Under the pieces are notes generated by a model, which worked only from the letters and a program-made list of their open reading frames with translations, searched no databases and was not told where the DNA came from. From assembly GCF_030384885.1 (NCBI RefSeq), contig NZ_CP128613.1: a stretch of DNA of 64,000 nucleotides; one strand, given 5' to 3'. This DNA is from Escherichia coli. GTDB lineage: Bacteria > Pseudomonadota > Gammaproteobacteria > Enterobacterales > Enterobacteriaceae. The translations under genes were made by a program, and so were the position numbers. Positions 21,021-25,151 of this stretch are shown here, piece by piece; within the stretch, counting starts at the first letter, position 1, and the number at the start of each line of letters is the position of its first letter.

Positions 21021-21221
21021 ATGGGACTTAAGTGGACCGATAGCCGCGAAATTGGCGAAGCACTGTACGATGCATATCCCGATCTTGATCCGAAAACGGT
21101 TCGATTCACCGATATGCATCAGTGGATTTGCGATCTGGAAGATTTCGACGACGACCCGCAGGCGTCCAACGAGAAAATCCTCGAAGCGATTTTATTAGTC
21201 TGGCTGGACGAAGCCGAGTGA
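21021..21221 (+). CDS. iscX: Fe-S assembly protein IscX
   Basis: 66 aa acidic protein ([21 protein letters not shown]...). Confidence 0.9.
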
Positions 21222-21398
21222 TTTCCGCGTCATGCTTCACGCCGCAGATGCGTTGGCTGCGCTCGTTCACCCCAGTCACATAGTTATCTATGCTCCTGGG
21301 GCTTCACTCACTTGCCGCCTTCCTGCAACGCGAATCATTTAGCGGAAAAATCCTGGGGCTGCCAACTGGCGGCCCTTTTACAAATAAGGATAACTAAA

Positions 21399-22682
21399 AT
21401 GACAGAAGCGATGAAGATTACCCTCTCGACCCAACCTGCCGACGCGCGCTGGGGAGAAAAAGCGACTTACAGCATTAATAATGATGGTATTACCCTGCAT
21501 TTGAACGAGGCAGACGATCTGGGGCTGATCCAGCGTGCGGCGCGCAAGATTGACGGTCTGGGCATCAAGCATGTTCAGCTAAGCGGTGAAGGCTGGGATG
21601 CGGATCGTTGCTGGGCATTCTGGCAAGGTTACAAAGCCCCGAAAGGCACGCGTAAAGTGGAGTGGCCGGATCTGGACGATGCCCAGCGCCAGGAACTGGA
21701 TAACCGCCTGATGATCATCGACTGGGTGCGTGACACCATCAACGCACCAGCAGAAGAACTGGGGCCATCGCAACTGGCACAGCGTGCTGTTGATCTGATC
21801 AGCAACGTCGCAGGCGATCGTGTGACTTACCGGATCACCAAAGGTGAAGATCTTCGTGATCAAGGTTATATGGGGCTGCACACTGTCGGGCGTGGTTCAG
21901 AACGTTCCCCGGTATTGCTGGCGCTGGATTACAACCCAACTGGCGATAAAGAAGCGCCGGTGTACGCGTGCCTGGTAGGTAAAGGCATCACCTTTGATTC
22001 CGGCGGCTACAGCATCAAACAGACCGCGTTTATGGACTCAATGAAGTCTGACATGGGCGGTGCGGCAACGGTTACCGGGGCGCTGGCATTTGCCATTACG
22101 CGCGGTCTGAACAAGCGCGTGAAGCTGTTCCTCTGCTGTGCGGATAACCTGATTAGCGGCAACGCGTTCAAACTGGGCGATATCATTACCTATCGCAACG
22201 GTAAAAAAGTCGAAGTCATGAACACCGATGCGGAAGGGCGTCTGGTTCTGGCAGATGGCCTGATTGACGCCAGTGCGCAGAAACCGGAACTGATTATCGA
22301 TGCCGCGACACTCACCGGTGCGGCGAAAACCGCGCTGGGTAATGATTATCACGCGCTGTTCAGTTTTGACGATGCGTTGGCCAGTCGCCTACTGGAGAGT
22401 GCCGCCCAGGAGAACGAACCGTTCTGGCGTCTGCCGCTGGCGGAGTTCCACCGTAGCCAGCTGCCATCTAACTTTGCGGAACTGAACAATACCGGAAGCG
22501 CGGCGTATCCGGCGGGTGCAAGTACGGCGGCGGGCTTCCTGTCGCACTTTGTTGAGAACTATAAACAAGGTTGGCTGCATATCGACTGTTCGGCGACTTA
22601 CCGTAAAGCACCAGTTGAACAGTGGTCTGCGGGTGCGACCGGGCTGGGTGTGCGCACGATTGCTAATCTGTTAACGGCGTAA
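21399..22682 (+). CDS. pepB: Peptidase B (M17 leucyl aminopeptidase family)
   Basis: 427 aa from ATG 21399 ([10 protein letters not shown]...); M17 motif NTDAEGRL. Confidence 0.9.
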
Positions 22683-22690
22683 ACTAATAT

Positions 22691-22789
22691 GCCGGATGCG
22701 GCGTAAACGCCTTATCCGACCTACAAAGTATTGTGAATTCAAAAAATTGCGATTCCCTTGTTGGCCTGATAAGCGTAGCGCATCAGGCA
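22691..22789. repeat. REP elements (two units) between pepB and sseB
   Basis: gccggatgcggcgtaaacgccttatccgacctac and ggcctgataagcgtagcgcatcaggca. Confidence 0.65.
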
Positions 22790-22824
22790 CTTGTGCCCCG
22801 AACATTGAATGAATTGTGGTTCTT

Positions 22825-23601
22825 ATGTCCGAAACAAAAAACGAACTTGAAGACCTGCTGGAAAAAGCAGCAACCGAACCGGCGCACCGCCCGGCCTTTT
22901 TCCGTACTCTACTGGAATCCACTGTCTGGGTACCAGGTACGGCGGCGCAGGGCGAGGCAGTGGCTGAAGATAGCGCGCTTGATTTACAGCACTGGGAAAA
23001 AGAAGACGGTACCAGCGTCATTCCTTTTTTCACCTCGTTAGAAGCACTGAAACAGGCGGTTGAAGACGAACAGGCGTTTGTCGTAATGCCCGTTCGCACA
23101 CTGTTTGAGATGACCCTTGGCGAAACGCTCTTCCTTAATGCCAAATTGCCAACCGGTAAAGAGTTTATGCCGCGTGAAATCAGTTTGTTGATTGGTGAAG
23201 AAGGAAATCCGCTGAGTAGTCAGGAAGTACTGGAAGGCGGTGAATCGCTGATATTATCGGAAGTCGCAGAGCCGCCAGCGCAAATGATTGATTCACTCAC
23301 CACCTTATTTAAAACCATTAAGCCGGTGAAGCGTGCTTTTATTTGTTCAATTAAAGAGAACGAAGAGGCACAGCCTAATTTACTTATTGGTATTGAAGCC
23401 GATGGCGATATCGAAGAAATTATTCAGGCGGCGGGAAGTGTAGCGACCGATACATTACCTGGTGATGAACCAATAGATATTTGCCAGGTGAAAAAAGGGG
23501 AAAAAGGAATTAGCCACTTTATTACCGAACATATTGCGCCATTCTATGAACGTCGCTGGGGTGGATTCCTGCGTGATTTTAAACAGAATCGAATAATTTA
23601 A
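22825..23601 (+). CDS. sseB: Rhodanese-enhancing protein SseB
   Basis: 258 aa from ATG 22825 (MSETKNELEDLL...); the track ORF starts 3 codons earlier at GTG. Confidence 0.8.
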   Translation: MSETKNELEDLLEKAATEPAHRPAFFRTLLESTVWVPGTAAQGEAVAEDSALDLQHWEKEDGTSVIPFFTSLEALKQAVEDEQAFVVMPVRTLFEMTLGETLFLNAKLPTGKEFMPREISLLIGEEGNPLSSQEVLEGGESLILSEVAEPPAQMIDSLTTLFKTIKPVKRAFICSIKENEEAQPNLLIGIEADGDIEEIIQAAGSVATDTLPGDEPIDICQVKKGEKGISHFITEHIAPFYERRWGGFLRDFKQNRII

Positions 23602-23603
23602 AA

Positions 23604-23628
23604 TATGCCGCCCCAAAGGGCGGCATTC
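23604..23628 (-). terminator. Hairpin terminator at 3' end of minus-strand ryfA transcript (also follows sseB)
   Basis: gccgcccc-aaa-gggcggc stem-loop; U-rich tract follows on the minus-strand RNA. Confidence 0.5.
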
Positions 23629-23905
23629 GGGCTTACTTGCTGTTCTGAAGGTTGTTAACCATCAGTAAATTGTTGCCGGAGGGACTCCGGTTATTATTTA
23701 CTTCGGAAAACAGCGCACCAGAAACAATAAGTACGATACAGAAGTACCGTATCTTCATTGTGCGGTCCATGCGAAGACCGCATCACGACAGCACCACTGG
23801 CGATATTGCCGCGATAGCAAGCGCTGTGGGGTGCCTGCATTTACGGTCATGGAACATCCTTTCCTAAAGCCAGCGCCCGTTTGCGAGACGGCGAAAAGGG
23901 CCGTC
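23625..23905 (-). ncRNA. ryfA: ryfA small RNA / mRNA of small toxic protein (boundaries approximate)
   Basis: Conserved sseB-sseA spacer of about 500 bp; K-12 ryfA maps between sseA and sseB; contains a minus-strand small hydrophobic ORF and ends at hairpin 23606-23623; 5' end not determinable from sequence. Confidence 0.5.
23632..23769 (-). CDS. Small hydrophobic protein, type I toxin-like (TimP-like), inside ryfA
   Basis: My own minus-strand translation: MDRTMKIRYFCIVLIVSGALFSEVNNNRSPSGNNLLMVNNLQNSK (45 codons; alternative start at second Met gives 41 aa); single predicted TM/signal-like segment; below the 60-aa cutoff of the ORF track; weak SD. Confidence 0.4.
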
Positions 23906-23984
23906 ACGAATAATACTCTCATATTTGAATAATTACTCTATTTATTATCTTGACTTAGCCAGGCATAAAAGACAGTATTTCAAT

Positions 23985-24084
23985 ACTGTGGGGTGCCTGC
24001 GTTGCTCCGGCAACACAAGTCAACCTGCTGGAAAGGCCGCGAACCAGACCAGCAATAAAAAACCGCCAAATTCGGCGGTTTTTT
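23985..24084 (+). ncRNA. Candidate plus-strand sRNA divergent from ryfA (antitoxin-like, TimR/RyfB-like), ending at terminator
   Basis: ttgact -35-like hexamer at 23949-23954; transcript would begin near the 15-nt box CTGTGGGGTGCCTGC (23985-23999) and end at hairpin+T-run 24063-24083; inference only. Confidence 0.3.
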
Positions 24085-24086
24085 AT
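24054..24086. terminator. Bidirectional rho-independent terminator (sseA 3' end / plus-strand sRNA)
   Basis: aaaaaaccgccaaattcggcggtttttt: GC stem flanked by A-run and T-run. Confidence 0.65.
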
Positions 24087-24100
24087 TGCCTGTAAAAAGC

Positions 24101-24946
24101 TTATTTTACGGGCTCAACCGGTAAATCGGCCCGTGCGCCCCATTCACTCCATGCGCCGTCGTACAGTTTCACGTTTGGCACATCCAGCGTCGCGAGTGCT
24201 AACAAAACCACGGCTGCCGTTACACCAGAACCGCAACTGACGATAATTGGTTTGTCGTAGCTGACACCGCGACCAAAAAATATCGCATCCAGTTCATCGG
24301 TCGTTTTTAGTTCGCCTTCTCGTACTAGTTCTGTCCACGGAACGTTCAACGCGCCGGGAATGTGCCCGCGACGTAAACCTGGGCGAGGTTCATCAACTTC
24401 TGCATTAAAACGTGCAGCCGGGCGGGCATCAATAATTTGCGCCGTATTTTCATGGCTTGCCAATAACACATCGGTTACTTTCACCACAGCCTCAGGATTA
24501 AACGCAGCGTTAAACTCACCTTCTGGCAGCGCTACTGCACCTTCTTCTAATAGCAGATCATCACGCTGCCAACCTGCAAGTCCACCACCCAGAATCGACA
24601 CTTTCTCTACACCAAAGGTGCGCAGCATCCACCATGCACGTGGGGCTGAGAAAAGATTACCTTCGTCATAGACAATCAGGTGCTTATCCTGGTTAACGCC
24701 TAACTCACGCATTGCAACGGCGAACGTTTCCGGGCGCGGCAGCATGTGCGGAAGCGGGGAATTGTGATCAGAAAGCGCTTCGATATCGAAAAACACTGCG
24801 CCGGGAATATGTCCATTCAGATACTCCTGGGCAACGTTACGATCTTCCTGTCCAGGCGGTGCCATGCGGGCATCGATAATCTGAATTTCCGGGTCATCAA
24901 TATGTTCGGCGAGCCAGTCGGCTCCTACAAACCATGTCGTGGACAT
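24101..24946 (-). CDS. sseA: 3-mercaptopyruvate sulfurtransferase (tandem rhodanese) SseA
   Basis: 281 aa from ATG 24946 (MSTTWFVGADW...); catalytic Cys in CGSGVTAA. Confidence 0.9.
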   Translation of the reverse strand: MSTTWFVGADWLAEHIDDPEIQIIDARMAPPGQEDRNVAQEYLNGHIPGAVFFDIEALSDHNSPLPHMLPRPETFAVAMRELGVNQDKHLIVYDEGNLFSAPRAWWMLRTFGVEKVSILGGGLAGWQRDDLLLEEGAVALPEGEFNAAFNPEAVVKVTDVLLASHENTAQIIDARPAARFNAEVDEPRPGLRRGHIPGALNVPWTELVREGELKTTDELDAIFFGRGVSYDKPIIVSCGSGVTAAVVLLALATLDVPNVKLYDGAWSEWGARADLPVEPVK

Positions 24947-25151
24947 AGGCATCTCCATTTTTGCCGGGTTAGGCTAAATTGTCGGATGTTTAGTGAAAAG
25001 CGACAAGCAAAAGAGGCTGATTTGGCTGTCTGAGCCACAATTCTCACTAAAATTCGGATTCCATGGGCGCGATACTGAATTACATAACGTAAATTCTCAC
25101 GCATAATAATTATTAGACGTTGCTAACGGGCCATTGTGGCAGGGATGAAAA

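Follow-up and report, generated by a model that had tools for sequence, protein, structure and literature searches.

A minority allele of timP-timR, a type I toxin-antitoxin-like gene pair, between sseB and sseA of Escherichia coli

The locus treated here lies between sseB and sseA in a 64,000-nucleotide stretch of Escherichia coli DNA (RefSeq assembly GCF_030384885.1, contig NZ_CP128613.1; hereafter the window, with positions counted from its first letter), and it resembles the timP-timR gene pair of Salmonella enterica, in which the small RNA (sRNA) TimR acts on the mRNA of the small protein TimP. In Salmonella, an 18-nt pairing, compensatory mutants and inhibition of in vitro translation have been reported, and TimR homologues were predicted in all species analysed (PMC7667032). 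Salmonella TimP is toxic on overexpression, also when expressed in E. coli (PMC7667032, PMC13000454). The pairs ryfA1/ryfB1 and ryfA2/ryfB2 of Shigella dysenteriae belong to the same gene family and have a five-nucleotide variable region inside the pairing box. Their divergent transcripts of about 100 nt are complementary at 16-17 of 18 nt over the variable region, RyfB1 lowers RyfA1 levels, and both RNAs were read as non-coding regulators (PMC5333039). Northern blots have also shown TimR in E. coli CFT073 and CH138 (PMC13188913). The accounts of the system are Fris 2017 (PMC5333039), Andresen 2020 (PMC7667032) and Bessaiah 2021 (PMC8205139), while the mechanism and later work are given in Eleftheraki 2024 (PMC11228461), Eleftheraki 2026 (PMC13000454) and Anamale 2026 (PMC13188913).

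Four other chromosomal type I modules whose antitoxin gene does not overlap the toxin gene, zorO-orzO, shoB-ohsC, tisB-istR-1 and dinQ-agrB, have in common with timP-timR a small hydrophobic protein, a divergently transcribed sRNA with a perfect complement of only about 18-20 nt to the toxin 5' untranslated region (UTR), well away from the ribosome-binding site, and a leader with much structure. They show no sequence homology with timP-timR, and timP needs no nucleolytic processing (PMC11228461), unlike modules of the zorO/shoB/tisB/dinQ type. TimP also stands apart in that its N terminus is signal-peptide-like and not a classical transmembrane helix.

In the window, about 500 nt without a long open reading frame (ORF) separate the convergent genes sseB (22816-23601, plus strand) and sseA (24101-24958, minus strand). 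The minus strand of 23600-23904 is the ryfA RNA of Rfam (RF00126; 312 bits, E = 8e-87, model positions 1-296 of 296, gathering score 80 bits), ryfA RNA being the historical name of the timP mRNA. The 601 bases of 23550-24150 are 100% identical to E. coli 2013C-4282 (NZ_CP027579), in which RefSeq annotates WP_243204021.1, of 41 amino acids (aa), at the coordinates equivalent to 23633-23758 (minus strand) of the window. The 41-aa product matched the NCBIfam profile NF040796 (toxic_TimP) with 78.2 bits over profile positions 1-39 of 40, and the curated cut-off of this profile is 45 bits. On the plus strand, 23986-24085 aligned end to end with Salmonella TimR, which we rebuilt from the in vitro transcription template oligos EHO-1419 and EHO-1420 (oligo table of PMC7667032). 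Identical bases were found at 75 of 97 aligned positions, and the 5' ends coincide, with the first base of Salmonella TimR (C of CUACGG) on position 23986 (C of CUGUGG).

The analysis established directly what both genes are, how their RNAs are placed and stranded for pairing, that the duplex and a pseudoknot in the leader covary, and that the ORF is conserved. We consider it very probable that these genes are the E. coli orthologues of timP and timR of other enterobacteria and that they form a type I toxin-antitoxin-like module. The window carries a minority E. coli allele of timP (formerly ryfA) and timR: among 5,426 complete E. coli genomes only one has at least 99% identity to 23550-24150, and 4,820 fall in the band of 80-90%. 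A preliminary description of this DNA had noted a likeness to Salmonella TimP and TimR. This likeness is confirmed by the Rfam ryfA match, by RefSeq and NCBIfam for TimP, by the TimR alignment and by the covariation of the box across genera and E. coli alleles; besides TimR, the +1 of timP and its start at +145 can be transferred from Salmonella to the window. By sequence comparison, the type I toxin-antitoxin-like interpretation given there is supported, and the correct system had been named.

The pairing site appears in the DNA as a direct repeat. The 15-mer CTGTGGGGTGCCTGC is present at 23824-23838 and 23986-24000, which are its only matches in 64 kb on either strand, even when up to two mismatches are allowed; both copies had earlier been placed one base to the left (23823-23837 and 23985-23999). 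In the repeat search the copies extend to 18 nt with a single A/G difference. The left copy is transcribed off the minus strand and the right one off the plus strand, which makes the transcripts complementary and turns the A/G difference into a G·U pair. The proposal of pairing in the toxin 5' UTR is thus borne out by covariation, with a duplex of 18 nt and one G·U in place of a perfect one of 15 nt. Repeat, duplex energy, covariation and fold all define the TimR-binding box (AAUGCAGGCACCCCACAG; 23824-23841, minus strand), which covers the 5' arm and loop of stem-loop SL2 and includes the variable region CACCC. The duplex ends 66 nt before the start codon. Its energy with the 125-nt leader is -42.6 kcal/mol; with only the 26-nt box region it is -38.3 kcal/mol, compared with -19 to -24 kcal/mol for non-cognate E. 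coli alleles. A 20-nt inverted repeat (23671-23690/23996-24015) was also considered as a second pairing site and was rejected, since timP is on the minus strand and both RNAs therefore bear the same sense and not complements. This shared motif, CUCCGGCAACA, is part of a small hairpin in either RNA, within the coding region of timP and directly behind the box in TimR.

Covariation across genera was examined with a contig scan using GCGGTCNNNGCANNGACCGCAC, which gave at least 15 usable Enterobacterales loci, no Salmonella among the matches listed, and also unrelated GC-rich genomes. The timP leaders were located through their SL4 hairpin, and the opposite strand upstream was then searched for the best duplex. 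A duplex of about 17-22 bp (contiguous stretches of 10-21) was found at a fixed place in 14 of 17 first-pass loci. Extra E. coli alleles were added to make 21 modules from Escherichia, Citrobacter, Superficieibacter, Erwinia, Rahnella and Yersinia. In all 21 a TTGAC hexamer precedes the start of the sRNA segment by 30-31 nt, and the mRNA box occupies positions -60 to -41 counted from SL4, which means that the register is set by homology and not by the duplex search. In the alignment of 20 distinct modules, standard pairs occupy 96.5% of the cells of a 20-bp intermolecular helix, falling to 28-47% when the partner is slid by 1-3 columns. Compensatory double changes were present in 11 of the 20 pairs (78 cells), and none of 500 shuffles reached these pairing and compensation values. 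Some of the 20 modules are closely related, and the cell counts therefore overstate the independent events, but the count of box sequences (at least eight different) does not.

The timP leader also has the structural elements known from Salmonella. By homology with the Salmonella +1 (GGCCCTTTC...), the 5' end of timP is at about 23902; the Salmonella transcript begins with GGCCCTTTCC according to oligos EHO-1224 and EHO-1421. A putative -10 hexamer, TATTAT (23910-23915, minus strand), can be read 7 nt upstream of this presumed +1; the promoter was not flagged by the consensus promoter scan, and the hexamer was recognised by eye and by homology. When the timP RNA of 305 nt is folded to minimum free energy (z = -5.2 against shuffles), the box falls on the 5' arm and loop of SL2, and SL3 and a very stable SL4 are formed as well. 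The SL1 side of the pseudoknot, CGCUGGC (23869-23875), pairs with the SL3 side, GCCAGUG (23795-23801), both on the minus strand. Across 15 homologues this 7-bp SL1-SL3 pseudoknot, described for Salmonella timP in PMC11228461, is paired in 100% of cells with compensatory changes in three of seven pairs, compared with 14-79% pairing in shifted registers. SL4 (GCGGUC-UUCGCAUG-GACCGC; 23763-23782, minus strand) was given by both the Rfam structure line and the minimum-free-energy fold. It encloses a GGA Shine-Dalgarno-like element and an upstream in-frame AUG (23770), and the hairpin is invariant in the alignment. The transcript ends at an intrinsic terminator (23605-23626, minus strand) that was supported by the terminator scan, the Rfam 3' hairpin and the fold. 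As pseudoknot, SL4 and box are all present, timP of the window has every RNA element required by the published mechanism.

The timP coding sequence (23633-23758, minus strand; RefSeq coding sequence, NCBIfam, ORF conservation) encodes 41 aa and a stop: MKIRYFCIVLIVSGALFSEVNNNRSPSGNNLLMVNNLQNSK. Residues 5-17 (YFCIVLIVSGALF) follow the basic K2 and R4 and have a mean Kyte-Doolittle hydropathy of +2.5, while the C-terminal 24 residues are polar (mean -1.1). This layout is signal-peptide-like, as described for TimP, and the product is predicted by analogy to be a small inner-membrane protein with an N terminus like an uncleaved signal peptide. In 18 of 18 loci from the six genera named above the ORF is open with 38-42 aa, the N terminus MK(I)RYxCIxLxVSG is kept and the polar C terminus drifts. 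A protein homology search with the 41-aa TimP gave matches in Escherichia and Shigella only, and no related solved structure was found.

The sRNA gene timR was read on the plus strand at 23986-24085, about 100 nt, from the Salmonella alignment, with its 5' end uncertain by about 2 nt; a plus-strand sRNA from about 23985 had been proposed before, and the alignment agrees. It consists of the 5' pairing box (23986-24003), a hairpin GUUGC-UCCG-GCAAC (24001-24014), the conserved core CCUGCUGGAAAGGCCGCGAACC and a terminator, and its RNA folds with z = -4.2. The putative promoter (23950-23978) has a -35 TTGACT at 23950-23955, one base right of its earlier position of 23949, a 17-nt spacer and a -10 CAGTAT at 23973-23978, which ends 7 nt before the pairing box. 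Its activity is presumed from the sequence, and the Salmonella equivalent is TTGACA-17-GAGTAT (oligo EHO-1349). The TimR intrinsic terminator was recognised from an inverted repeat and the RNA fold (24052-24089, no strand assigned), with a core stem CCGCC/GGCGG at 24063-24078 and a U-run at 24079-24084, in agreement with the terminator first suggested at 24063-24083. The automatic terminator scan did not list it, perhaps because the A- and T-runs beside it base-pair and so take up the T tail. Since such runs lie on both sides, it could also end the convergent sseA transcript.

RefSeq E. coli annotation has no feature under timR (window 23986-24090), and no Rfam 15 family reached its gathering score there, the best being AgrB with 30.7 bits against 40, which came largely from the 3' hairpins and terminator. 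It means that automated pipelines keep leaving timR unannotated and that scans keep rediscovering it. The AgrB, rimP-leader, IS128 and RNAI matches on 23985-24129 are all below gathering score and overlap the TimR terminator hairpin, the longer ones spanning much of TimR, and we treated them as chance. A 56-aa plus-strand ORF with a TTG start (23925-24095) was rejected, as it overlaps timR and the homologous region has a 5-nt indel between alleles.

Compared with Salmonella enterica, the window shares the sseB/sseA context, the divergent arrangement, the ORF start at +145, the 18-nt duplex of the TimR 5' end with SL2, the 7-bp SL1-SL3 pseudoknot, SL4 over the Shine-Dalgarno element and the TimR body. 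It differs in the pairing box (CUGUGGGGUGCCUGCGUU in the window, CUACGGUGUGCCUGCGUU in Salmonella), in the length of TimP (41 against 38 aa, with a different polar C-terminal half) and in having no STM2534-like gene between timR and sseA. The box of the window is the CACCC (ryfA1-like) version as listed for S. dysenteriae, which has two tandem modules and not one (PMC5333039). The ryfA/timP gene of E. coli K-12 is in the orthologous position with leader and coding sequence near-identical outside the 5-nt variable box, which is TGTTT in K-12; its TimP shares 34 of 41 residues with that of the window, and K-12 has two timR-like genes.

If it behaves like its Salmonella counterpart, the module would work as follows. 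The minus strand would give a timP mRNA of about 300 nt, with a 145-nt structured leader before the 41-codon ORF, which would adopt inactive and active forms (PMC7667032, PMC11228461, PMC13000454). In the active form, the SL1-SL3 pseudoknot and a long-range contact would free the Shine-Dalgarno element from SL4. The divergent plus-strand gene would produce TimR of about 100 nt, whose first 18 nt would pair with the 5' arm and loop of SL2 in the active form, destabilising the pseudoknot and the active conformation so that initiation is blocked. TimP would then be made only when TimR falls, and would insert in the inner membrane and be toxic at high level. For E. coli, repression by TimR and toxicity of TimP are taken over from Salmonella. 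For the CACCC allele, observations in other strains and species suggest that both RNAs are transcribed, that TimR represses translation, and that overexpressed TimP would be toxic to the membrane.

Several other explanations were weighed. The 15-nt repeat could be a chance match or the neutral remnant of a local duplication without pairing function, as the copies are direct repeats on the DNA and some strains do carry tandem duplications here. Yet matches to the 15-mer are expected 0.14 times per 64 kb even with two mismatches, none of 100 dinucleotide-preserving shuffles gave two or more, as had been anticipated when the repeat was called unlikely by chance, and the flanks of the two copies are unrelated. 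Moreover, the box sequences differ completely between taxa and stay complementary at fixed positions with 11 of 20 pairs compensatory, so the covariation effectively refutes such an origin, to which we give almost no credence. On the side of the protein, the translated product could be a 45-aa form from ATG 23770, as drawn by Bessaiah et al. 2021, who described a 45-aa ORF at +135 to +270 of CFT073 ryfA (PMC8205139). The preliminary description had also reported a 45-codon hydrophobic ORF on the minus strand; it is present, with ATG at 23770 and stop at 23635-23633, thus 23770 to 23633 in place of 23769 to 23635. Escherichia, Citrobacter and Yersinia have this upstream ATG in frame, but the codon is AAG in Rahnella and Erwinia (GCAAGGACC), whereas the downstream ATG (23758) is invariant in the alignment of homologous loci. 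The NF040796 match in the 45-aa form opens at residue 5, which is the second ATG, and RefSeq annotates 41 aa. The upstream AUG sits at the junction of loop and 3' arm of SL4 without a Shine-Dalgarno element ahead, and ATG 23758 is at +145 from the presumed +1, where the Salmonella timP ORF starts and where mutating the ATG abolished synthesis (PMC7667032). From the invariant ATG, the profile start, the RefSeq call and the match at +145 we take the 41-aa form from the conserved and annotated start as the TimP product, and the longer form as improbable.

The serious rival concerns the physiology of the locus and not its anatomy. The E. coli locus could be mainly a regulatory RNA pair, in which RyfA controls stress, fimbrial and virulence genes in trans and TimR (RyfB) opposes or assists it by way of the 18-nt duplex described above, while the TimP peptide would have no role or would not be produced. 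Such a view fits the anatomy, and it could coexist with the toxin-antitoxin reading if RyfA is a dual-function RNA. A number of observations weigh against a toxin-antitoxin role in E. coli. Alleles of ryfA with a disrupted ORF complemented all ΔryfA phenotypes in uropathogenic E. coli CFT073 (PMC8205139). In avian pathogenic E. coli (APEC) CH138, ΔtimR had little phenotype, and ΔryfA was attenuated while ΔtimR and the double mutant behaved like the wild type, which points to mis-regulation by unpartnered TimR; the authors leave it undecided if a toxic peptide is encoded by ryfA of E. coli (PMC13188913). In S. dysenteriae, ryfA1 gave no detectable protein, and overproduction of RyfA1 lowers ompC (PMC5333039). 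In the window, the timR -10 CAGTAT is weak, with three of six consensus bases, and the consensus promoter scan did not flag this promoter. E. coli TimP and the Citrobacter/Salmonella-type proteins have different C-terminal halves, so toxicity is not simply transferable to the E. coli protein. On the other side, the 41-codon ORF stays open from Escherichia to Yersinia, with its start context and hydrophobic N terminus retained despite C-terminal drift, and SL4 and the covarying pseudoknot, elements of translation control, are conserved. This would be unexpected for a purely non-coding RNA, and no direct duplex of RyfA with a target was shown in the ryfA papers considered. We regard a mainly regulatory RNA pair as rather unlikely, and RyfA may act as a regulatory RNA in E. 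coli, possibly besides coding.

Within E. coli the timP-timR box falls in three classes, CACCC, TGTTT and CGCGT; the versions TGTTT, CGCGT, CCCCC and CACCC of the variable region were already listed in 2017 (PMC5333039). The CACCC class includes the window, the GTDB representative genome and one copy in APEC37, the TGTTT class K-12, and the CGCGT class S88, O104:H4 and HR5-1 as well as E. whittamii. A timR promoter and box of CACCC type was found in 424 of 5,426 complete E. coli genomes, O157:H7 among these. Each timP of the three classes has a timR with matching box within the same locus, and the cognate duplexes have -35 to -38 kcal/mol against about -18 to -25 kcal/mol for non-cognate pairs. 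As a general observation, the sseB-sseA intergenic region is unusually polymorphic within E. coli.

Rearranged forms of the locus were also observed. The K-12-like genome NZ_CP161802 (locus L002:1924-2360) has two timR-like genes between timP and sseA. The timP-adjacent copy has a CGCGT-type box (CUGAGACGCGCUUGCAUU) and pairs poorly with K-12 timP (-25 kcal/mol), the cognate TGTTT-type timR lies about 320 bp further away with a 20-nt duplex of -35 kcal/mol, and between them is a remnant of a second timP promoter with its first 16 nt or so. Two complete tandem modules with an sseB fragment between them were present in APEC37 (L124, 902-2117) and 2021CK-00607 (L126, 902-2094), resembling S. dysenteriae ryfA1/ryfA2. 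Their box classes are TGTTT and CACCC in APEC37 and TGTTT and CGCGT in 2021CK-00607, and each timP adjoins the matching timR. Extra timR-like copies with conserved core and terminator were seen in HR5-1 (L127:2160-2300) and P276M (L129:1705-1850), with 5' boxes that match none of the timP examined; in P276M the timP ORF is truncated and unannotated and sseB is frameshifted.

A collapsed locus was found in Citrobacter amalonaticus (L080:7840-8196), Yersinia similis (L071:4330-4690) and Yersinia aleksiciae (L116), in which the reverse-complement TimR body is followed by a single box copy and then by the SL2 3' arm, SL3, SL4 and the timP ORF. From their sequence these loci look like deletions between the direct-repeat boxes with loss of both promoters and SL1, and the timP ORF is still open (38-42 aa) in all three. 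We tentatively suggest, at somewhat less than even confidence, that the pairing box is a swappable specificity determinant, with at least three mutually non-cognate classes in single, tandem or scrambled arrangement and with box-to-box deletions that collapse modules. The K-12 double timR, the tandem modules and the box-to-box collapse may have been described before.

Outside the intergenic region, a few weak Rfam matches were recorded below threshold on the minus strand: V_AS5 (44.9 bits against 96) and CssrA (26 against 93) at 21150-21347, and naRNA4 (36.9 bits against 59.5), REP-like, at 22677-22721, just upstream of sseB.

The timP-timR finding is correct but already published in all its parts and is not new. 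It has little discovery value, because gene pair, pairing site, variable region and mechanism are published and timP is in RefSeq at the same coordinates. Its practical value is that timR is missing from annotation and that the conserved start gives 41 aa and not 45 aa. The published E. coli phenotypes were ascribed to the RNA. If the pairing box is indeed a swappable specificity determinant, and if this is undescribed, nature would offer in this locus a case of orthogonal toxin/antitoxin RNA addressing together with repeat-driven module turnover.

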